Below, piece after piece: positions 3,982-47,608 of a stretch of DNA of 64,000 nucleotides. Numbering within the stretch: the first letter of the stretch is position 1; each line of letters opens with the position of its first letter. The translations under genes and the position numbers were made by a program. Below the pieces are notes generated by a model that did not search any database, was not told where the DNA came from, and worked only from the letters and a program-made list of their open reading frames with translations. Source of the DNA: an uncultured Methanosarcinales archaeon (lineage in GTDB: Archaea > Nanobdellota > Nanobdellia > Woesearchaeales > GW2011-AR9); NCBI GenBank assembly GCA_964373955.1, contig CAYJXA010000002.1, forward strand, positions 5,113 to 69,112. Reading direction: 5' to 3'.

Positions 3982-4494
3982 TCATCTTCCCCTATGCGCC
4001 ATGGACTTTCCAGGGTTGTAAAAGAACCAATCCTCTTTCGTAATAGGATGAAAGTAATCGGCTTCTTCTATCAACATTTTAGCGGTTGTTTCTTGGACTG
4101 CAGCAATCTCCACTCTTACTCCTTCAGACTTTAGATGCTTAACTAGGTCGATATAATCAGAATCCCCGGACATGATGATGATCGTATCTACCTTTGGAGC
4201 TAATTGCGTCGCTTTGATGGAAAGCGGAATATCTGCTGATTTATGGCATGGAACGACAGAACCGTAATATTGCTGGTGCAATCGTTCCGCTAGCTTGGAG
4301 GAAATATTCTGCCCTTCTCGAAAATAGATTAAGCGATTTAAGCCTCTTCCATTCAAGAGCTTGGGGATAAGTTTGTCAAAATTAACCATAGTATTGGTAG
4401 ATTTACTCTGCTCGTGAATGCTTCGTTCAATATTATTCCCATCGCAGAGAATTGCTACAGATTGCGTAACCAGAATGCTTTTGTCGGTCGTCAT
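3982..4494 (-). CDS. NYN/LabA-like (PIN-related) domain protein
   Basis: ILCDGNNI...IIIMSGDSDYIDLVKHLKSEGVRVEI matches the NYN (DUF88/LabA) signature. Confidence 0.7.
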   Translation of the reverse strand: MTTDKSILVTQSVAILCDGNNIERSIHEQSKSTNTMVNFDKLIPKLLNGRGLNRLIYFREGQNISSKLAERLHQQYYGSVVPCHKSADIPLSIKATQLAPKVDTIIIMSGDSDYIDLVKHLKSEGVRVEIAAVQETTAKMLIEEADYFHPITKEDWFFYNPGKSMAHRGR

Positions 4495-4521
4495 GATATC
4501 ACCTTTTTTTATAATGATAAA

Positions 4522-4715
4522 TGAGCCTGCCCGGACTTTCGTTCAAGTACACTACTCAGCTTATATCGTGGGGTCGAGTGTCACGAGCGCCCCACTTGAA
4601 TACGACTCGCCTAGTGTAACTGGCGTTCGAACCGGGGTTTAGGGGTTTCCACTTCTTCTAACCGAAGCCCCTCGTCCTCACTGGCATTATCGTATCCAGG
4701 CTAGACTACAGGCCC
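4522..4715 (-). tRNA. tRNA-Arg(UCG) with three apparent introns (D-loop, 37/38, T-loop)
   Basis: Hand fold of the reverse complement gives GGGCCUG UA GUCU AGCCUGGAUA [15 nt, 4692-4678] GGAC G AGGGG CUUCGG [15 nt, 4661-4647] A CCCCU AAAC CCCGG UUCGAA [about 90 nt, 4625-4536] U CCGGG CAGGCUC A. The mature form is 74 nt with all four stems paired (one G2-U71 pair). A TATA-like ATTTATAAAT lies upstream. Confidence 0.7.
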
Positions 4716-4850
4716 ATATTCCACTTGAACGGTTCAACGAGATTTATAAATCTACCTACATTTTCTTTCAGAATATAAATGGTGTAACCAACTTTCTATT
4801 TTGGATAGAGAGAAACCTTAATAAAAGCCAATAGTATCTCTCTCAATGAA

Positions 4851-5408
4851 ATGAAAGAGGCGATCCGAAAAGAAATAGTCTACGATTTAGATAAAGCCAT
4901 TCAAATTCTGCAAGTGCGTGAAACAACCGATGTGGAGGAACTTAAAAATTTAAGTGACCATGCGATTGAAGATATCGCTGCAGAAAGAGATCTGGAGCTG
5001 GTCTCCGTTACCGTGCTCCTGTATTCTTTATACAAAATAATTACCAGCGTTGATGCACCAGTTTATGCAAATTTAGTCCCGGCACTGAAAGCAGCAAAAA
5101 GTGCTTTAGAGCAAAAAAATTTGGGGAAATATAATCAAAGCATTAAGAAAGTCTATGAAATAGTCCGACGCTGTGATAACAAAATAAAAGAGCATCTGGA
5201 TGACGTAATGCAAGCTGCTCGTATTAAAAAAGGAACTTCCCTCTTGCAGCGGGGGCTTTCCATAGGGCAAGCGGCAGGATTGATGGGCTTATCCAATTGG
5301 GATTTACAGCAGTACGCGGGAAAAACTATGGCCCTGGATCAGCATGACGAGAAATTTCCTGCACAAAAGCGAGTAACCATAGCGTTCAAATTGTTTGGGG
5401 TAGCATAA
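4851..5408 (+). CDS. hypothetical protein with C-terminal HTH-like segment
   Basis: ORF track. LLQRGLSIGQAAGLMGLSNWDLQQYAG looks like a helix-turn-helix. The stop lies 1 nt before the next gene. Confidence 0.5.
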   Translation: MKEAIRKEIVYDLDKAIQILQVRETTDVEELKNLSDHAIEDIAAERDLELVSVTVLLYSLYKIITSVDAPVYANLVPALKAAKSALEQKNLGKYNQSIKKVYEIVRRCDNKIKEHLDDVMQAARIKKGTSLLQRGLSIGQAAGLMGLSNWDLQQYAGKTMALDQHDEKFPAQKRVTIAFKLFGVA

Positions 5409-7959: not shown

Positions 7960-8964
7960 TTAAGCTGCCCGTAGTACATCCACCATCGAATACACTTTTC
8001 CTTTCTCTCCGGCTTCTACTTTCCTTTGCAAGAAAGTAAGCGCATCTAAAGTTCCTAGAGCATACACTTTTCTCCCATTTACATTGTGAGTTACGCTGAG
8101 TTCTCTGCCAGGATTTTCATCCATTTGAAATACAACTGTTTCATCAGGAGATACTCTCCTCGTGCTCCGCTCAAATGGGCTTTGTGGTTCTTCTCCTAAG
8201 GTGTATGATGAAAAAAAAGGATTCTCCCGTAAGAAGGTTCGTAATTCTTCTGCGAGTTGTTCCAATGCTGCTGTTGATGCAGGAGTTCTAAGGTGATACG
8301 TATGCCAGCCGTGCCCGCCTAAATATGCTTCCGGGATGCCCATTCTGCGCTGTTGTTCCGGATCACGAATTTTTCGAATTTCAGCTGCACGGCAAGGGAA
8401 GCCAAGTCTTCCAAAATGATCCACCATTGCCTTCGCCGTTCCGCTGGTATCTGCTTTCTTTTGTTGGTGACTTTCTGTAATGGCAATGGATCCTCCTCGA
8501 AGTGAATACGAATGAAGTCTAGCATATTCTTCCATAAATGCTTGCAATGCCACAATTTGGGTGGCCATGTTCGGAGCAATCACTGCTACTATTTCAGAAT
8601 CTCTAACTCTTCTTTCTAAAGCTGATCGATCTCCGCCGGTTGTGCCCATTACAAAAGGAATTCTTTGTCGGCAGTAAAAATCAACGTTGTCATTAACTGC
8701 CGCGGGTAAGGTATAATCTACCGCTATGAAAGATCCGCGTTCTTCTCGTACTCTTCTTACTGCTTGTTCCCGTTCTGCCGGCCCTATTAAATAGACCGGA
8801 GCACAAATGGGTTTCCCTAGTAGCCTCATTTTGTCATGGTGTTGTGCGCTAGAGAACGCGACTGAAAGGAGACCTAATCGCTCTTTGGAATCCGGATAGG
8901 GATCAAGGCAATTAGCAACTTCTACTGCCATACTTCCGGGAATACCATTAACCATGACATTCAT
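7960..8964 (-). CDS. dihydrodipicolinate reductase (DapB)-family oxidoreductase
   Basis: VMVNGIPGSMA N-terminus and DYTLPAAVNDNV...PFVMGTTGGD...IAPNMATQIV resemble DapB N- and C-domain motifs. Confidence 0.55.
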   Translation of the reverse strand: MNVMVNGIPGSMAVEVANCLDPYPDSKERLGLLSVAFSSAQHHDKMRLLGKPICAPVYLIGPAEREQAVRRVREERGSFIAVDYTLPAAVNDNVDFYCRQRIPFVMGTTGGDRSALERRVRDSEIVAVIAPNMATQIVALQAFMEEYARLHSYSLRGGSIAITESHQQKKADTSGTAKAMVDHFGRLGFPCRAAEIRKIRDPEQQRRMGIPEAYLGGHGWHTYHLRTPASTAALEQLAEELRTFLRENPFFSSYTLGEEPQSPFERSTRRVSPDETVVFQMDENPGRELSVTHNVNGRKVYALGTLDALTFLQRKVEAGEKGKVYSMVDVLRAA

Positions 8965-9210
8965 TGTTTACTCCTCCACAGAAATCGTGGAATGATTACC
9001 TCTATCACTCCTCTGAAGCCGAGAATTGTACCCTTTTTATAAATATTATTATACACTGTCCTTCAAAACGAGAATTTAGCCTTTTCAATCCCGCATAAAC
9101 TTATTTCCCTTTCTTAAACTTTTTGTTTTTTTTGGTTTTTTAAGGTTCATTTATCCTCGATAAAGAGCAAAACATTTATATACTTGCTTTGTTTTCTTCC
9201 TCGGAGAGGG

Positions 9211-30857: not shown

Positions 30858-31199
30858 ATGAGAACAGAAATTATTCTTACCTTACAGAAATCATTTGAAG
30901 GGTATGCTCATACCACCGACGGTGTTGAATTCTGGTATGCAAGAGACCTGCAAAAGTTGTTGGATTATGATGAGTGGAGGAATTTTCTACATGTTATTGA
31001 GAAAGCTAAAATCTCTTGTAAAAATTCAAATCAAAGAATAGATAATCATTTTGTTGGCACCAACAAAACGATAGCCATGCCTAAAGGTGCTTCTAAAGAG
31101 GTAGATGATTTCATGCTCACCCGTTACGCTTGTTACCTTATTGCTCAAAATGGCGATCCTCGGAAAGAGCAGATTGCTTTTGCTCAAAGCTATTTATAG
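30858..31199 (+). pseudogene. DinD (DNA damage-inducible protein D)-like, N-terminal fragment only
   Basis: FWYARDLQKLLDY..W.NF...I.KA...C and LTRYACYLIAQNGDPRKEQIAFAQSY align with the first 110 aa or so of roughly 275-aa DinD, as recalled. The ORF stops where DinD continues (..YFA.QTR). Confidence 0.55.
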
Positions 31200-32377: not shown

Positions 32378-33279
32378 TTTTTCTTCTTCGCGTGAACTGG
32401 TTTTAATTTGAGATGTTTCAAATACCAATCCCCCCGTTCTTTACTTTCTTTCTCATGCAATTCCCGCCAGGCTACCTCCGCTTCATTCGGCTTAGGAGGT
32501 TTCCCATGCCATTCGTATTTCCCTTCCATGAAAGAAACTCCTTTTCCCGGAGTAGTCTTGGCGATGATCATTAAAGGTTTGCTTTTATTATTTCTTGCTT
32601 TTGCTAGTGTTTTGACAATTTCAGTCATATCGTTCCCTTTTATGATGATGACATTCCAATTGAAAGCTTTATATTTTGCTTCCACTGAATCGAGGGGCAT
32701 GATATCTTCAGTGTTCCCATCAATTTGAATATAATTCCTATCTAAGATGGCAATCACATTATCCAGTTTATATTTCGCAGCGAAAAGTACTGCTTCCCAG
32801 GTATTTCCTTCATCGTGCTCCCCATCACTCATCACACAAAATACTCTATTCTTTTTCTTATCCATCCTTAAACCGTAGGCCATTCCACAGGCTTGGCTTA
32901 ACCCAGAGCCAAGAGGACCGGAGGTGGTTTCCAATCCGGGTAAGGATTCCCGATGGGGATGACCTTGTAATCTTGTTCCTAATTTACGTAAACTCAATAA
33001 TTCTTTTTTAGAAAAATAGCTGGCATTTGCAAGCGTAGCATAAAGAACAGGACAGATGTGGCCATTGGATAACACCAGATAATCTCTTCCTTCCCAGTGC
33101 GGGTTTTCTGGGTTATGCTGTAAAACGTTAAAATATAAAGCGGTGAAAATATCCGCCATGCCTAAAGGTCCAGCGGAATGACCCGACTTAGCGGCAACTA
33201 ATGCTGAGATAATGTCTTCCCGGATGACATCTGCCATCATCTGGAGGTCTTTAATTGAGGTTAGTTTTTTGAAAGTCAT
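32374..33279 (-). CDS. tkt: transketolase, N-terminal section (TPP-binding)
   Basis: SGHSAGPLGMADIF, GHPHR and SDGEHDEGNTWEA (the GDG-type TPP motif variant). Confidence 0.9.
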   Translation of the reverse strand: MTFKKLTSIKDLQMMADVIREDIISALVAAKSGHSAGPLGMADIFTALYFNVLQHNPENPHWEGRDYLVLSNGHICPVLYATLANASYFSKKELLSLRKLGTRLQGHPHRESLPGLETTSGPLGSGLSQACGMAYGLRMDKKKNRVFCVMSDGEHDEGNTWEAVLFAAKYKLDNVIAILDRNYIQIDGNTEDIMPLDSVEAKYKAFNWNVIIIKGNDMTEIVKTLAKARNNKSKPLMIIAKTTPGKGVSFMEGKYEWHGKPPKPNEAEVAWRELHEKESKERGDWYLKHLKLKPVHAKKKK

Positions 33280-33461
33280 TTTTCTTCTTGCAATACCTTG
33301 ATATTAAGTATGAACGTTATTATAGCTATGATAACGTAAACATAGTTGTACGCCAATTCAATATTATCGATTCCTTTGGATAAGCCAAACAAAATCCAAC
33401 CTCCAGTCATAATGAGCAACACCATATCAAGGTAAATTATAGTTTTTTTTACACTAATCAT
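33276..33461 (-). CDS. small membrane protein (61 aa)
   Basis: ORF track. Two hydrophobic helices. ATGA overlap with the transketolase start. Confidence 0.4.
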   Translation of the reverse strand: MISVKKTIIYLDMVLLIMTGGWILFGLSKGIDNIELAYNYVYVIIAIITFILNIKVLQEEK

Positions 33462-33462
33462 A

Positions 33463-33570
33463 CTAAACTACTCCCAGCGCATGTAAAGCTAAAATAATGA
33501 CGGCAATGATTCCTATTATACTTAAAACTATAGCGAGCCAAGAAATCCATTGTTGCTCCTGTTTGGACAT
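33463..33570 (-). CDS. small single-pass membrane protein (35 aa)
   Basis: Own translation: MSKQEQQWISWLAIVLSIIGIIAVIILALHALGVV. The stop lies 1 nt before the next ORF's start. Confidence 0.3.
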   Translation of the reverse strand: MSKQEQQWISWLAIVLSIIGIIAVIILALHALGVV

Positions 33571-33694
33571 ATTGTTAGGAATATTTTGTCGTTAATAAAC
33601 GTTGTGTTACCACTTTTTATTCAATATGGAAAAGAATCGTGAAATGTGTATATTATGGCCAGCTTCTTTGGTTTCTTAAACTTATGAGTGATTT

Positions 33695-33799
33695 CTAGCA
33701 ATACTCACACACATTTTTTCCCTTTTTCATCATTGCTTTTGCCGGTTTCTTGCTTTTCTTGGCAACGACTTTCTTTTTTCCTGCTTTTTTCTTTGCCAT
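33695..33799 (-). CDS. Lys-rich small protein (34 aa)
   Basis: Own translation: MAKKKAGKKKVVAKKSKKPAKAMMKKGKNVCEYC. Confidence 0.3.
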   Translation of the reverse strand: MAKKKAGKKKVVAKKSKKPAKAMMKKGKNVCEYC

Positions 33800-33813
33800 G
33801 TCTTTCACCCCCT

Positions 33814-34338
33814 TTAGATATTGTATCCGAAATATAATCCTGCCACTACCATAAGTATCCCCAGAATCCACCATCGAAACTTCGTAAAGATTTGGGAGAA
33901 CTGTGCTTTATTTGCTTCTGCCTTCCAGAGCATACTTGATAAAACTAAAGTTATAACCACAATACTATGAACAACCGTGCAATAAATGCACAGTGATTTT
34001 AGGATAAATTCGGCAGTGACCATATACACTACGAACGCTATTCCTGCCACATTCCACCAAAATAATCCTGCCACGGAAGCTTCTTCCGCTTTCAGTGCTT
34101 TCCAGCTCAATACTATTGATACTAAAAACCATAAGATCCCAAACCAGGCCACGGGAATGTCCAATAATTCCGAGTAGGTACTGGTATTAGTAAGAAGACA
34201 GGAAACAACATTATTAATATCGCAAATTCCTTCTGCGGGATTGAGATGGATTTGTAATAAATAGCCTGAAACGAGCAAGCCAAGTACGCTAAGAGCACTA
34301 ATTCCAATCAAAATCTTTTTTTGTGTGTGTTCTTCCAC
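33814..34338 (-). CDS. vitamin K epoxide reductase (VKOR) family membrane protein
   Basis: 4-5 TM protein with a loop Cys pair (CDINNVVSC) and a membrane-embedded CIYC (CxxC). Confidence 0.7.
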   Translation of the reverse strand: MEEHTQKKILIGISALSVLGLLVSGYLLQIHLNPAEGICDINNVVSCLLTNTSTYSELLDIPVAWFGILWFLVSIVLSWKALKAEEASVAGLFWWNVAGIAFVVYMVTAEFILKSLCIYCTVVHSIVVITLVLSSMLWKAEANKAQFSQIFTKFRWWILGILMVVAGLYFGYNI

Positions 34339-34496
34339 GCCTGTCGTTTCCCCTTTAGTAATTACCCCTGTAAATCATGATGAAAATGCTTAATCTACTT
34401 CCGGCAATCTGAATATTTTGCTGCTGGTGTATCTCTCTCGCCTCTTTCTTGTTTTAATTTTTGAATTGTATATAAACATTTTGATGCCCATTTTTT

Positions 34497-34630
34497 AGGG
34501 AAGCGGAGTTAACGATGTTAACTTCCCCCGACTTTACGTCGGGGTCGAGGCATAGCCGAGAAGTTTTTCCCGCGCGCCAAATATCTCCTGAAACCGTCGA
34601 TTAATTAAGTGAGAAAATTCCGCCACAGTC
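34497..34630. repeat. island intergenic repeat module A (inverted relative to module B)
   Basis: TGAGAAAATTCCGCCAC 34610-34626 and TTTTTCCCGCGC 34564-34575 are exact reverse complements of 36102-36118 and 36157-36168. It also holds TTAACGATGTTAA 34509-34521, the helix GGGAAG/CTTCCC and the hairpin CCCCGAC-TTTAC-GTCGGGG. Confidence 0.75.
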
Positions 34631-34695
34631 GTTAAGTTGTATTACGTGCACTTTTTAACGAAAGTTTTAAATAGGGGTGTGCCCATACACTTATT

Positions 34696-35643
34696 ATGAC
34701 CTACGTTGAGACTATTAAAAGAGGAAACAAAGAGTATTACTATCTCACTAAGAATCTTAGAGTGGGGGTTAATAATTGGAAAAAGATTAGGGTATACATT
34801 GGTGATAAGAAGCCGACAAAATCAGGCATAAAAAAATATGCTGAGGAAATTGAGAAAAAGATAGAGCAAGAGGGCTTGACAAGACCTGAATATTCTTATC
34901 TTTCTGATGAAGATTCTGAAACGCTCCAAGATCTTAAAGAAAGCTTTAAAGGATGGTTAAAACAGACACCTGAAAGTTTAAAGAAAAAACTCTATGATGA
35001 TTTTGTGATTCGATTTACGTATCATTCCAACGCTATTGAGGGAAATAGGCTTACGTTACGTCAAACTGCTCTAATTCTTAAAGATAAAGTCATTCCCTCT
35101 GGAGTTAGGGCTTCTGATTATCACGAGGCTGTCAACGGGAAGGAGTGTTTAGATTATTTGAAAGAATATGCCGGGGAATTAAACAATCGCTTGCTGGAAA
35201 AAGTGAATGGAATTTTAACTAAAAATACAGGAGTTGTTTATGGGGGAAGAATTCGCTTTTTTGATGTTCAAATTGAAGGTTCTAAACACGTTCCTCCACC
35301 AAATGAAGAAGTGAAAAAGCATTTGTTAAATATGTACAAATGGTACAGTGCAAATAAACATAAATTGCATCCGTTTGAATTGGCTACTCTCATTCATGCA
35401 AGATTAACCTGGATTCATCCGTTTGAGGATGGAAATGGAAGGACTTCCCGGACAATTATGAACTGGATTTTAATGAAGAATGGTTATCCTATGTTCTTTA
35501 TCCCATTTGAAAAGCGGGAAGATTATTATATGACTTTGGAAGAAGCGGATAAAGAGAACTTTAAAGAGTATGTTGCTCGTATGCTTCGGCTGATTATTGA
35601 CCAAGTGAGAAGTTACGGGCACAAAGAGAAGAAAGAAAAGTAG
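34696..35643 (+). CDS. Fic family protein (AMPylase/Doc-like)
   Basis: Canonical Fic motif HPFEDGNGRTSR. Confidence 0.9.
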   Translation: MTYVETIKRGNKEYYYLTKNLRVGVNNWKKIRVYIGDKKPTKSGIKKYAEEIEKKIEQEGLTRPEYSYLSDEDSETLQDLKESFKGWLKQTPESLKKKLYDDFVIRFTYHSNAIEGNRLTLRQTALILKDKVIPSGVRASDYHEAVNGKECLDYLKEYAGELNNRLLEKVNGILTKNTGVVYGGRIRFFDVQIEGSKHVPPPNEEVKKHLLNMYKWYSANKHKLHPFELATLIHARLTWIHPFEDGNGRTSRTIMNWILMKNGYPMFFIPFEKREDYYMTLEEADKENFKEYVARMLRLIIDQVRSYGHKEKKEK

Positions 35644-35662
35644 TGTATGGGCACAAAATTAG

Positions 35663-36085
35663 TCAGGGCGTTATTAAGTAATCAAGCGGATTTCCATACT
35701 GTTTACCTAATTCTTCATAATATTTTCTCCATTCAGGATCAAATTGAAAATGAAGTTCAACTGGTTTTTCTTTTCTCATAGCAATGTTTGCTTCTTGCAA
35801 CGTACCATGGGATATCCCAAAAATCTAAAATCTATCAGGTATCTCAACTGTGCGAAAACAAAATTCCATTGCTTTTTCTCTTCCAATTGCTGGATTACCT
35901 TCAAATCGTTTATATGAGAAAGCTTGAAATGGATGAAAAGGAGCAAGGCCGCGCTCAGTTACATAGTCCATAATTTCTTCAATCTTATCAACAAGGCGTG
36001 AAGGTGTCGCACAATAAATTAATTCTGTCATCCTGTCGGCATATACGAAAGTTCTTATTAAAAATTGTTGTATCATAAACGTCAA
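35663..36085 (-). pseudogene. hypothetical gene interrupted by one in-frame TAG
   Basis: The ORF-track protein 35825..36085 ends ...EIPDRF at TAG 35825-35827. The same frame continues IFGISHGTLQEANIAMRKEKPVELHFQFDPEWRKYYEELGKQYGNPLDYLITP to TGA 35663-35665. Confidence 0.5.
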
Positions 36086-36099
36086 GTCTGCGTTTTGGT

Positions 36100-43623: not shown

Positions 43624-44472
43624 ATGAACATCACTGAACTCATAACCAAAACTGGGCTGCGACAGGGCCTGAGCAGGAATACCCTCAAAACATACTGTTA
43701 TTGCGTGGAAAGATTTTTTCGAATTTGCCGCAAAAATCCCTATGCACTCCGTAAGCAGGACCTTCTGGAGTATATGGACAAACTCATTGAACATAATGCC
43801 CCCGGAAATACTGTAAATGTGCAAATCAATGCATTAAAATTCTTTTACGAACAAGTATTGCATCGCCGACTTACAATTAATCTTCCCATCCAGAAAGTTC
43901 CAAAACGGTTGCCTTATTTTCTGCAGAAAGAACAAGTAATGCTCATGTTGCATCATATTGACAATCCCAAGCACCAGTTGATGATTGCATTATTATATGG
44001 CACTGGCATGCGGGTAAGCGAATTAACTCATCTGAGAGTGCAAGATTTTGTATTCTCTTCCAATTATGGCTGGGTAAGGCAGGGTAAAGGAAAGAAAGAC
44101 CGTTTGTTTATTATTCCTGAGAAATTAAAAGAAAAATTGCAGGAGTATATTATCAGCAACAATTTATCTGCGGAAGATTGGCTCTTCCTTGGTCGGGAGA
44201 ATAATCATTATTCCGATCAGAGTGTGCGTGAGATTCTCAAAAATGCAAAGAAAAAAGCCCGCTTGCAGCAACATGTCTACCCCCATATGCTCCGGCATTC
44301 CTTTGCTACTCACTTCATAGAGAATGGGAACTCCGTGCTTGAGCTTCAGCCCTTGCTGGGGCACAGTAAAATTGAAACAACAATGGTCTATTTGCACTGC
44401 GCCGCACCAAAATTATTGAATTTGAAAAGCCCCCTAGATTCCCTCCCCGAAACCACTCCACAATTCTTATAA
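43624..44472 (+). CDS. tyrosine recombinase, IntI/XerD-like (no IntI-specific insertion evident)
   Basis: [12 protein letters not shown] (Arg I), [10 protein letters not shown] (His-x-x-Arg), [14 protein letters not shown] (catalytic Tyr) and the C-terminal LKSPLDSL tail. Sits 42 nt downstream of the tRNA gene. Confidence 0.85.
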   Translation: [282 protein letters not shown]

Positions 44473-44497
44473 AGATGCCTCCCCGTTAATATTTCCA

Positions 44498-47374
44498 ATG
44501 ATTACTCGAATAGAACAGCCCTATACTGAACTCCAGCTAAAATCCATTCTTCATCCCTTACTTAACCAGTGGTTCTTCTCAAAATTTAAAGAATTTTCCC
44601 TGCCCCAGCTCTATGGTGTTATGGAAATTCATAACCGACGAAATGTATTAATCTCCGCTCCCACCGGTGCAACGAAAACCCTCACTGGATTTCTCGCTAT
44701 TTTAAATGAACTTATTGATTCGGCAAAGAAACAAATCCTGGAAGACAAAGTGTATTGCATTTACATCAGCCCGCTCAAAGCGCTGAATTACGATATTCAA
44801 TACAATTTACTCACCCCCCTGCACGAAATAGAAAAACTAGCGGATAAAAAGCTGGGCATTCGAGTAGGGGTAAGAACCGGTGACACAACGGCAACGGAAA
44901 AAGCCAAAATGCTCAAGCATACTCCACACATTCTCATCACCACTCCTGAAAGTTTAGCGATCATGCTCAATTCTCCTAAATTCAAAGAAAAATTAACGAG
45001 TATTCAATGGGTGATTGTGGATGAAATTCATGCTTTAGCAGAAAACAAGCGGGGAGTGCATCTCAGCCTGACCTTGGAACGACTCCAACGAATTTCACCG
45101 GGGTTAACCAGAGTGGGATTAAGTGCCACGATTGCTCCGCTGGAAGAAATAGCCCGGTATTTGGTGGGGTACATGGGAGACACGGAAAGAGAATGCCGGA
45201 TCATTGACGTGCAGTTCCTCAAACAAATGGATTTACAAGTGCTCAGCCCCGTGCGAAGTTTAGTAGATACTGACTACTTGCTCAAGCATCATAAGATGTA
45301 TGAGCTTATAGATCAGCTCATTCAGGAGCATAAAACGACGCTCATTTTTACGAATACGAGAAGCGCGACGGAACGAGTCGTGCACAACCTGAAAGAGATG
45401 TTCCCTCAGCATTATCATGATAATGTTGCTGCTCATCATGGAAGCTTAAGCAAAATGAGCAGACTACATACGGAGCAAAGTCTGCGCGAAGGAAAGTTGA
45501 AAGTAGTGGTTTCTTCTACTTCCTTGGAATTAGGAATTGATATTGGGTATGTTGATTTAGTGCTCTGCCTGGGAAGTCCAAAATCGGTTGCCCGGTTTTT
45601 ACAGCGGGCAGGAAGAGCCGGGCATCAATTACATTCGACCGTCAAAGCACGAATCATCGTCATGGATCGGGACGATTTGGTGGAATGTGCGTTGTTATTA
45701 AAAGCAGCAAAAGAAAAAAAGATTGATCGTATTCAGATCCCCACCAATGCCTTAGACGTGTTAGCACAGCAGATTTACGGCATTGCCATTAATGAAGTCA
45801 TCAATGTATATGAACTCTTTAATTTCATTAAAAATAGTTATTGTTATCATAGCTTAACGTGGGATGATTTCTTTGAAGTCATCAAATATTTATCTGGGCA
45901 GTACGCTAGCTTGGAGGAGAGGCATGTCTATGCCCGCATTTGGTACGATGCTGAGACAGGGGATATTGGCAGAAGAGGAAAAATGGCCCGGATCATTTAC
46001 ATGACTAATATTGGTACGATCCCTGAAGAAACCTATGTTACTGTTAAAGTAGGTGAACAGACCGTAGGCATGATCGATGAAGGATTTCTGGAGAGATTAC
46101 GTCCAGGCGATGTCTTTGTCTTGGGAGGAAATGTCTATATGTTTAAGTTTTCCCGGGGCATGACCGCGCAAGTAAGCACTTCAGTTAATAGGCCCCCCAC
46201 CGTTCCCAGTTGGTTTTCAGAGATGCTTCCTCTTTCCTTTGATTTAGCGATGGAAATTAGCCGTTTCCGCAGGTTAATGGAAGAGAAATTTGCTGCTCAA
46301 AAGAGTCAGGAAGAGATGCTAGGATTCATTCATTCCTATCTCTATGTGGATGAGAAAGCCGCAGAAAGCATTTATCACTATTTTGATGAGCAATACCGCT
46401 TCAGCAAGATTCCCTCCGATCGCAGGATTTTGATTGAGAATTTTGTAGACCGAGGGAGATCATACGTCATCTTTCATACGCTCTTCGGACGACGAGTGAA
46501 TGATAGTTTATCTCGAGCATTAGCGTTTGTAATTGGAAGAAGCCAGCATCGAGATGTGGAGATAGGAGTAACGGATAATGGGTTCTATTTATCTGCTGAT
46601 AAAGCATTTAACGCGGTCAGAGCATTTGAATTGCTCAAGACCGAGAATTTTCGATCGATTGAAGAGCAGGCCATTGAACGGAGTGAAATCTTAGCCAGAC
46701 GCTTCCGGCATTGCGCTGCCCGCTCTTTAATGATCCTTCGGGAGTACATGGGACGAAAGAAGCATGTGGGCAGGATGCAGGTAGGAAGCAAGATTTTGTT
46801 TAATGCGGTTAAAAGAATAAGTGAGCAGTTTCCAATATTAAAAGAAGCTCGTCGCGAGGTACTGGAGGATTTGATGGATTATATCCATGCGCAGCAAATC
46901 ATTGATGGAGTAGTTGACGGGATGATTACTGTTGAAGAGGCGCATACTCCTACACCTAGTCCCTTTGCCTTTGGATTAATTATGGCGGGATATAGTGATG
47001 TCATTAAAGTTGAAGATAAACAAGAATTTCTGCGCAGGATGCACCAGCAGGTATTAGCGAGGATTGCGCTGAAAGAAGGGAAGAAGATGCTTCAGGAGAA
47101 ACAAGCAGAATTTTCCTATAGTTCTTTCTGGGATGATGTGCAGAAGAAACAGGAGAATGAAAAAGATGCGTATAAAGAAAAGTTGAAGATGCAAGCATGG
47201 GGATTAAAACATGTGCCGATTTATGCCAAAGAAGAATTGGTGAAATTAATCGAATTTGGATCGATGAGGAAGGAAGTGTGGGAGGAAGTGAGGAAATATA
47301 AGAAAGAGATTGAAGAGAATTGGCCTAAAGAATTGAAGGAGTTTGTGTTGGGGAAGATGGATGAAACAGTATAA
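44498..47374 (+). CDS. lhr: Lhr-like ATP-dependent DEAD/DEAH helicase
   Basis: Walker A APTGATKT, the DEIH box (VDEIHAL), and helicase C motifs (SSTSLELGIDIG, QRAGRAGH), followed by a long DEAD-associated C-terminal region. Confidence 0.85.
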   Translation: MITRIEQPYTELQLKSILHPLLNQWFFSKFKEFSLPQLYGVMEIHNRRNVLISAPTGATKTLTGFLAILNELIDSAKKQILEDKVYCIYISPLKALNYDIQYNLLTPLHEIEKLADKKLGIRVGVRTGDTTATEKAKMLKHTPHILITTPESLAIMLNSPKFKEKLTSIQWVIVDEIHALAENKRGVHLSLTLERLQRISPGLTRVGLSATIAPLEEIARYLVGYMGDTERECRIIDVQFLKQMDLQVLSPVRSLVDTDYLLKHHKMYELIDQLIQEHKTTLIFTNTRSATERVVHNLKEMFPQHYHDNVAAHHGSLSKMSRLHTEQSLREGKLKVVVSSTSLELGIDIGYVDLVLCLGSPKSVARFLQRAGRAGHQLHSTVKARIIVMDRDDLVECALLLKAAKEKKIDRIQIPTNALDVLAQQIYGIAINEVINVYELFNFIKNSYCYHSLTWDDFFEVIKYLSGQYASLEERHVYARIWYDAETGDIGRRGKMARIIYMTNIGTIPEETYVTVKVGEQTVGMIDEGFLERLRPGDVFVLGGNVYMFKFSRGMTAQVSTSVNRPPTVPSWFSEMLPLSFDLAMEISRFRRLMEEKFAAQKSQEEMLGFIHSYLYVDEKAAESIYHYFDEQYRFSKIPSDRRILIENFVDRGRSYVIFHTLFGRRVNDSLSRALAFVIGRSQHRDVEIGVTDNGFYLSADKAFNAVRAFELLKTENFRSIEEQAIERSEILARRFRHCAARSLMILREYMGRKKHVGRMQVGSKILFNAVKRISEQFPILKEARREVLEDLMDYIHAQQIIDGVVDGMITVEEAHTPTPSPFAFGLIMAGYSDVIKVEDKQEFLRRMHQQVLARIALKEGKKMLQEKQAEFSYSSFWDDVQKKQENEKDAYKEKLKMQAWGLKHVPIYAKEELVKLIEFGSMRKEVWEEVRKYKKEIEENWPKELKEFVLGKMDETV

Positions 47375-47432: not shown

Positions 47433-47533
47433 AGCGGGGTAGGGAAGCTAGGAGTACCCGATGGGCTCATACCATTAGGATAAATCTAGTGCAAGAAACC
47501 CATAGATCGGTGGTTCAAATCCACCCCCCGCTA
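47433..47533 (+). tRNA. initiator tRNA-Met(CAU) with a canonical 37/38 intron (26 nt)
   Basis: AGCGGGG UA GGGA AGCUAGGAGU ACCC G AUGGG CUCAUA [47472-47497] A CCCAU AGAUC GGUGG UUCAAAU CCACC CCCCGCU A. A1:U72 and the GGG/CCC anticodon stem are archaeal initiator hallmarks. Confidence 0.85.
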
Positions 47534-47608
47534 TTCTTACTATTTGCGAAGCCTGGGGTTGATAAGGGGCGAAGCCACTTATGTGAGAATCCACCCCCCG
47601 CTATTCTT
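47518..47608 (+). repeat. 21-nt exact direct repeat of the initiator-tRNA 3' end
   Basis: AATCCACCCCCCGCTATTCTT occurs at 47518-47538 (T-loop through discriminator plus 5 nt of trailer) and again at 47588-47608. Confidence 0.9.

Follow-up and report, generated by a model that had tools for sequence, protein, structure and literature searches.

The gene at positions 43624–44472 (forward strand) of the window, as we call the whole 64,000-nt stretch of DNA analysed here, encodes a catalytically intact paralogue of the XerA family of tyrosine recombinases from Woesearchaeota-type DPANN archaea. Sequence comparisons point to a role as a dedicated cassette recombinase as the most likely one for this paralogue, which we denote type A. 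The gene stands at the end of an array of co-oriented sites, each formed by a core and a hairpin, with exchange of flanking sequence at the core. The host genome is an assembly of 1.38 Mb in 32 contigs, estimated to be about 93% complete.

The open reading frame specifies 282 residues, in which Pfam recognizes a Phage_integrase domain and an N-terminal SAM-like domain. In an alignment with IntI1 (plasmid NZ_MK047610.1), Escherichia coli XerC and XerD, a relative from a Clostridium plasmid and the XerA-type protein encoded on contig 12 of the same genome, residues R130, K155/K158, H221, R224, H247 and Y256 are all kept, which makes the R-K-H-R-H-Y catalytic set complete. A confident AF2 model (pLDDT 89.1) and its structural matches show the tyrosine-recombinase fold, and the model has only short strands at the position of the IntI insert. 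Foldseek places the integron integrase VchIntIA (TM 0.80) at the top for this model, ranked together with the XerA structures 5hxy and 4a8e, and the fold therefore cannot discriminate between IntI and XerA.

A preliminary description of the gene had listed four motif matches to IntI1, among them GKGKKDR against GKGSKDR, and all four are present in the real IntI1 sequence. The special closeness to IntI that was read from them does not follow, as the quoted hallmarks are common to the whole group of IntI and XerA-like proteins that share an SPLD tail; the contig-12 XerA and the Clostridium protein carry the same motifs, including the tail in the form KSPLD. True IntIs and archaeal proteins have this tail, as do many short recombinases from bacteria (Bacteroidota, Patescibacteria, Bacillota and Pseudomonadota), and among the sequences compared an HPR C-terminus is found in XerC/XerD-type proteins only. 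The short forms, which have no insert, are numerous in Bacteroidota and Patescibacteria, and the one on the Clostridium plasmid lies immediately beside an IS91-family transposase.

Between the beta-hairpin lysine motif GKGxKxR and HxLRH, IntI1 has about 45 extra residues, a block that is missing from the aligned window protein. GKG and HxLRH are 67 residues apart in the window protein and 107 apart in true IntIs, with 65–68 in the short relatives and about 72 in XerC/XerD-type proteins. The models TIGR02249 and NF011946 and the VchIntIA structure 2a3v each align in two pieces that skip the insert. Alignment, spacing and split matches thus bear out the earlier proposal that the IntI-specific extra domain is missing. 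The spacing is indeed shorter than in IntI1, but the shortfall had been put at roughly 30 residues and, at 67 against 107 residues, comes to about 40. In the solved VchIntIA–attC complex (MacDonald et al. 2006, as cited in PMC8138268), the insert is reported to contact extrahelical (flipped-out) bases of the folded site; having no insert, the type A enzyme probably does not use or read folded DNA of the attC type. All six published archaeal IntIs contain the insert (PMC9668308).

The contig-12 gene is a second XerA of the host genome and scores 267 bits against the NCBIfam model for archaeal XerA, NF040815, above its cutoff of 220. Across 40 genomes of the same family, matches to the window protein are bimodal, with type A at 43–56% identity and type B at 31–39%; the contig-12 gene belongs to type B and is likely to be the genome's housekeeping XerA. 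A strict scan of the draft genome for 11-N(5-7)-11 palindromes yielded no convincing canonical dif site. Those few database relatives of the window protein that have a name carry the label Candidatus Woesearchaeota.

Comparison of IntI and XerA profile HMMs, which had been suggested as a check on the IntI-like reading, puts archaeal XerA first and IntI second. NF040815 gives the window protein 213.8 bits, just under the cutoff, followed by the IntI model TIGR02249 with 187.9 bits in two pieces, which does not reach its cutoff of 265; a further IntI model, NF011946, gives 120.7 bits where 435 are required. The other type A proteins score 214.8–236.5 bits against NF040815, and four of the six type A proteins scored pass its cutoff. 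The order of XerA above IntI recurs in five type A relatives and in five canonical XerA-like (type B) proteins, and the curated HMMs show no systematic shift of type A scores towards IntI relative to type B. No IntI match above cutoff was found among 301 genomes sampled from the phylum, and a tblastn search of plasmids with IntI1 retrieved IntI1 copies only and no further IntI references.

In a 49-row tree, type A forms a clade with support of 100/99, and the single IntI included, IntI1, lies next to it on a branch of length 2.2 (support 93/51). This placement, the VchIntIA structure at the top of the Foldseek ranking and the exact presence of a core string of the cassette sites, AACGATGTTA, in repeat DR1 of attI1 would fit an integron integrase that either is degenerate, having lost the insert, or preserves an ancestral state from before the insert arose. 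We consider such an origin very unlikely: a tree with IntI1 outside all archaeal sequences is not rejected by the AU test (p = 0.31), so no adjacency of IntI1 and type A is needed; types A and B are equally IntI-like in their HMM scores; and XerA structures do equally well in Foldseek. A 99-row tree, enlarged by 20 true IntIs and by about 40 of the short forms from bacteria, separates the two groups. Its IntI clade (support 100) comprises the 20 IntIs and one sequence first binned as short, whereas type A (support 100), which now includes one 'Nanoarchaeota archaeon' sequence, lies beside B1, an archaeal XerA-like group that holds the contig-12 gene (SH-aLRT 83); the short bacterial forms are a group apart from type A. 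On the basis of the AU test and the larger tree, we rejected the sister placement of IntI1 and type A as a probable long-branch effect. Since the IntIs form a clade of their own and type A falls next to XerA-like sequences, the window protein is a paralogue within the XerA family rather than an IntI, and the suggestion that it could be an intermediate towards IntI is not upheld.

A clear place in a XerA or other chromosome-dimer-resolution clade had been foreseen as the alternative to the IntI-like reading. The XerA family is where the protein belongs, but it is a paralogue distinct from the copy that is likely to resolve dimers. Could it nonetheless be an ordinary chromosome-dimer resolvase, with cassettes that hitch-hike on the host Xer machinery as IMEX and Acinetobacter dif modules do? 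XerA is its best HMM, the XerA cutoff is exceeded by four of six type A proteins, and the cores of the cassette sites are short palindromes of dif type. The contig-12 XerA, however, scores higher and groups with other DPANN XerA-like genes, and several near-complete relatives keep type B with no type A found. We regard this alternative as unlikely, and the genomic arrangement described below also speaks against it.

A blastn-short comparison of the island's intergenic DNA with the genome found no high-identity repeat family; the cassette sites were identified by a motif and a covariance model. The 53 non-redundant sites from nine genomes align cleanly and share one architecture. A left flank, AATTnnnCW, precedes the core TAACGATGTTA; next come a hairpin of 7 bp whose loop reads TTTAY, another short stem and finally AGTTTT. 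The hairpin covaries strongly, with 94.6% of cells paired as compared with 55.8% in shuffled alignments; compensatory double changes occur at all 7 of its pairs, and the observed score is reached in 0 of 500 shuffles. The hairpin beside each core is clearly under selection. The exact 11-mer core TAACGATGTTA has only two copies in the 1.38-Mb genome, which are co-oriented and bracket a cassette with a Fic gene.

The array in the window is small, with three cassettes and a third site that is altered. Site 1 (34496–34579, forward strand; 59 bits with the covariance model) has the TAACGATGTTA core, the covarying hairpin and AGTTTTT. It is the most distal site and the only aligned one whose left arm has no AATT motif, for which reason it may mark the distal boundary of the array, as an integration model predicts. 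Site 2 (36162–36248, forward strand) scores 39.7 bits and site 3 (38636–38781, forward strand) 36.3 bits, the latter with a core one base longer (TAACGGTTGTTA) and a 64-nt insertion in the loop. This insertion (38672–38740) recurs in the metagenomes examined within a different site that has the core TAACGAGGTTAAG and another stem, and it looks like a small element moving between site hairpins.

Cassette 1 (34580–36161) contains the Fic gene (34696–35643) and a short antisense region. It is also bounded by sites in a relative, G039, upstream of the type A orthologue, where the Fic proteins are 81.5% identical and the recombinases only 50%. Just inside the two ends of the cassette lies a 17-nt perfect inverted repeat (34610–34626 and 36102–36118). 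Cassette 2 (36249–38635, forward strand) consists of three overlapping genes with no Pfam match. Cassette 3 (38782–43146) is low in G+C. Besides a Type ISP/IIG restriction-modification gene and a gene for a coiled-coil membrane protein, it includes a conserved cassette end of 188 nt (42977–43164), which shares 82% identity with one in G007. A similar conserved noncoding block closes both cassette 2 and cassette 3 (38494–38601 and 42948–43164) with an inverted degenerate copy of the core. Metagenome contigs of three sequencing runs match the window up to 39573 and again from 41667 and differ in between, from which we deduce that the Type ISP restriction-modification gene co-exists with a variant that has another middle part. 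Over all loci, the cargo comprises Fic, Type ISP/IIG restriction-modification, PIN toxin, SAM methyltransferase and LD-carboxypeptidase genes and several genes without a Pfam match, and the cassette genes lie in both orientations.

The array ends in a candidate docking-type site (43147–43175, forward strand), where a left half of cassette type, AAAAATTACGCA-TAAC, is joined to a different right half, TCCC-TATATCC. The general pattern is a cassette-type left half followed by TAAC-N4-TATAWGY, and in its strict form it is found just upstream of the recombinase at 8 of 11 type A loci. The 700 nt upstream of the 11 genes (7.7 kb in total) contain 8 occurrences where 0.06 are expected, and the other 399 kb contain 3, although this statistic is generous since the pattern was derived from the same loci in which it was then counted. 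In seven relatives the docking site lies 170–430 nt before the start codon; in the window it is at −463 because a tRNA-like gene intervenes. Between docking site and recombinase there is also a promoter-like element, a conserved box with a TATA sequence (43343–43380, forward strand), which directly precedes the recombinase gene in three other genera (G007, G012 and G003) and the tRNA-like gene here. The 38-nt promoter-like module (CCACTCCCGCACTGGACAAC..GGCTAGAATATATAAA) also precedes several unrelated genes of the host genome, at C7:2097, C1:288325 (reverse strand) and C1:194382.

Downstream of the recombinase, a gene for an Lhr-type helicase (44498–47374, forward strand) forms a conserved chromosomal flank that is syntenic in G007, G024 and G022. 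Farther on lies an intron-containing tRNA with anticodon CAU (47433–47533); an exact 21-nt copy of its 3′ end is found at 47588–47608, 70 nt downstream. On the far side of the island is a gene for a Bro-N domain protein (30858–31199), the homologue of which is immediately next to the recombinase in G024 and 12 kb upstream in G039.

The tRNA gene of the preliminary description (43405–43582, forward strand) is tRNA-like and is recognized by Rfam only (30.6 bits for a threshold of 29); its anticodon region contains a 103-nt insertion, and ARAGORN called no tRNA in the window. A tRNA-like gene directly upstream, a low-G+C stretch from 36 to 43 kb and cargo of defence type might together suggest that the recombinase is the integrase of a single element, a provirus or island, integrated at this gene. 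We find this quite unlikely. No duplicated tRNA end bounds the island, which is split by three co-oriented sites of a family that extends across genera; the Lhr flank is syntenic in three other genera; and at the orthologous loci of G007, G012 and G003 no tRNA separates the promoter-like box from the recombinase gene.

The arrangement of array and recombinase recurs in relatives. In the window, all three significant covariance-model sites are upstream of the recombinase and on its strand. We scanned the neighbourhoods of ten type A orthologues (139 kb) with the same model, and all 27 significant matches, distributed over eight of the ten loci, are upstream of and co-oriented with the recombinase gene. 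A hand tally over 41 family genomes, made on the contigs that carry type A, agrees: at 11 loci, each of the 36 sites lies upstream of the gene and in its orientation. In G010 a dozen sites follow one another, the last of them 1.7 kb before the recombinase. At the orthologous loci the downstream Lhr helicase is syntenic in three genera, and the upstream gene content is completely variable, which a motif search attributes to the site array. The repeat-punctuated cassette array noted earlier beside the recombinase is thus real, and since the arrangement recurs in relatives, 'alternative cassette-recombination chemistry' is a fair description of the system. Such strict adjacency and polarity with respect to type A would be unexpected of the housekeeping resolvase considered above, because a dif site is usually unlinked to its recombinase gene (PMC2958812).

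Gene and sites also tend to be present or absent together. Among well-assembled genomes, G010, G018 and G039 have both type A and arrays, and G027, G023, G005, G009, G040 and G006 have neither. Sites occur with no type A gene found in six drafts (G028, G029, G016, G020, G032 and G038), and a type A gene or fragment occurs with no site found in seven genomes (G002, G003, G008, G011, G017, G030 and G033). Most of these exceptions come from fragmented assemblies, with contig breaks close to the gene; on their upstream side, 14 of 24 type A genes are no more than 2 kb from a contig end.

The sites carry a footprint of recombination. In 10 pairs of sites, identity is at least 90% in one flank and does not exceed 55% in the other, and the points at which identity switches bracket core positions 4–10 (GATGTTA). 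Eight pairs match in the right flank, with identity running leftward into the core. The first difference falls between −4 and +3 in seven of them; in the eighth, a pair from different genera, a point difference at +14 comes first. Where the left flanks match, identity extends through the core and breaks at +11. Two of the ten pairs link different genera, and several represent duplicated cassettes within one array. These switch points place the exchange within the 7 bp at positions 4–10, and a 7-bp overlap is of the size used by tyrosine recombinases. A cassette or the start of one is repeated two to three times, each with a different left neighbour, in the array of G010 (4131–5030 and 8088–8987) and in G028 (at 75, 769 and 2686).

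Might the enzyme instead be a DNA invertase that flips segments, with phase variation of the Fic or the restriction-modification region? The 17-nt inverted repeat just inside the ends of the Fic cassette (34610/36102) and the variant middle of the restriction gene that co-exists in three runs could be seen in this light. Every significant site in the window and in the relatives is nevertheless in direct orientation, and the flank-swap pairs point to excision and insertion, which makes inversion extremely unlikely. Logan contigs from four public metagenome runs in which this stretch occurs, inspected over 33000–45000, contain no deletion or circle joints, but rare products are invisible in contigs, so that this absence is no evidence against activity. 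Loose ends in the same contigs (X4 at 36273 and others) are not interpretable as cassette junctions.

We infer from these sequence patterns that the type A enzyme, not the housekeeping XerA, most likely recombines the cassette sites and that recombination would still be going on. The dif-like cores could also be substrates of the housekeeping XerA. In the mechanism that we propose, the type A enzyme would bind the core as a dif-like duplex, with AATTnnnCW-TAAC as the left arm and GTTAWG as the right arm, and strands would be exchanged inside the 7-bp GATGTTA overlap. A cassette that lies between two directly repeated sites would be released as a circle, and insertion would take place at the docking site beside the recombinase gene or at another cassette site. 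The lateral hairpin may act as folded DNA, bind a partner protein or terminate transcripts.

Integrons and Acinetobacter dif modules are the closest published analogues, and we found no published description of the type A system. Acinetobacter dif modules use the host XerC/XerD, are plasmid-borne and have sites in alternating (inverse) orientation. Here, by contrast, the recombinase is a dedicated paralogue and the array is chromosomal, with directly oriented sites that each have a hairpin. Common to both are accessory modules that are bounded by Xer-type sites and shuffled between replicons (PMC6449649).

The likeness to integrons, including the archaeal ones of Ghaly et al. 2022 (PMC9668308), lies in a tyrosine recombinase gene that has next to it both a fixed docking site and a co-oriented array of cassettes with accessory genes; in cassette sites made of a short conserved core and a hairpin that is conserved in structure and variable in sequence; and in cargo that includes toxin, defence and methyltransferase genes. 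The core also has GATGTTAYG in common with the IntI1-binding repeats of attI1. In class 1 attI1, AACGATGTTA is exact in DR1 (107–116) and has a near copy, TTTGATGTTATGG, in DR2, a match of a short string that was noticed post hoc; DR1 and DR2 are supplementary binding sites of IntI1 (PMC8946536). Unlike integron integrases, type A is without the IntI insert and outside the IntI clade. Whereas the boxes of attC are separated and paired, those of the core here, one inverse-core-like and one core-like, are adjacent (CATAAC-GAT-GTTATG) and the hairpin is lateral. The recombinase is co-directional with the array, in contrast to its divergent orientation in integrons, and the cassette genes run both ways.

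With archaeal XerA and its dif site (Cortez et al. 2010, PMC2958812; 4a8e, 5hxy), type A shares its family by HMM, its fold, its catalytic residues and a short palindromic core. It differs in forming a paralogous clade of its own, found alongside a better-scoring XerA, and in being linked to many sites arrayed beside its own gene rather than to one dif. In addition, archaeal dif has 11-bp arms and a 6-bp spacer (PMC2958812), whereas the palindrome halves here are 3 nt apart, with a 7-bp exchange window. Smyshlyaev et al. (2021), who distinguish an 'integron-like' subgroup of tyrosine recombinases, noted that IntI-like proteins may lack the insertion, with no cassette array or site described for them (PMC8138268). 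In our 99-row tree, type A stands apart from the short bacterial forms. We found no publication that combines Woesearchaeota, a tyrosine recombinase and cassettes, and a review of archaeal tyrosine recombinases mentions neither DPANN nor such arrays.

Integrons, which are defined by IntI with its special domain, are the textbook example of how accessory genes are stockpiled and shuffled. For annotation, type A genes should be called neither 'integron integrase' nor presumed housekeeping XerA. We see about an even chance that they serve as dedicated integrases for the cassettes of a gene-capture platform widespread in DPANN archaea, which would have been derived from Xer/dif independently of integrons, with a duplex core and a lateral hairpin in place of a folded attC. 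If so, cassette capture evolved more than once or predates the IntI insert, and the GATGTTAYG shared with attI1 would reflect an old mode of DNA reading in the SPLD-tail group of IntI and XerA proteins. This would offer a testable model for the origin of integrons and, for biochemistry, a small recombinase with a defined 11-bp core. Such a platform would also account for part of the hypervariable, hard-to-assemble regions of DPANN genomes.
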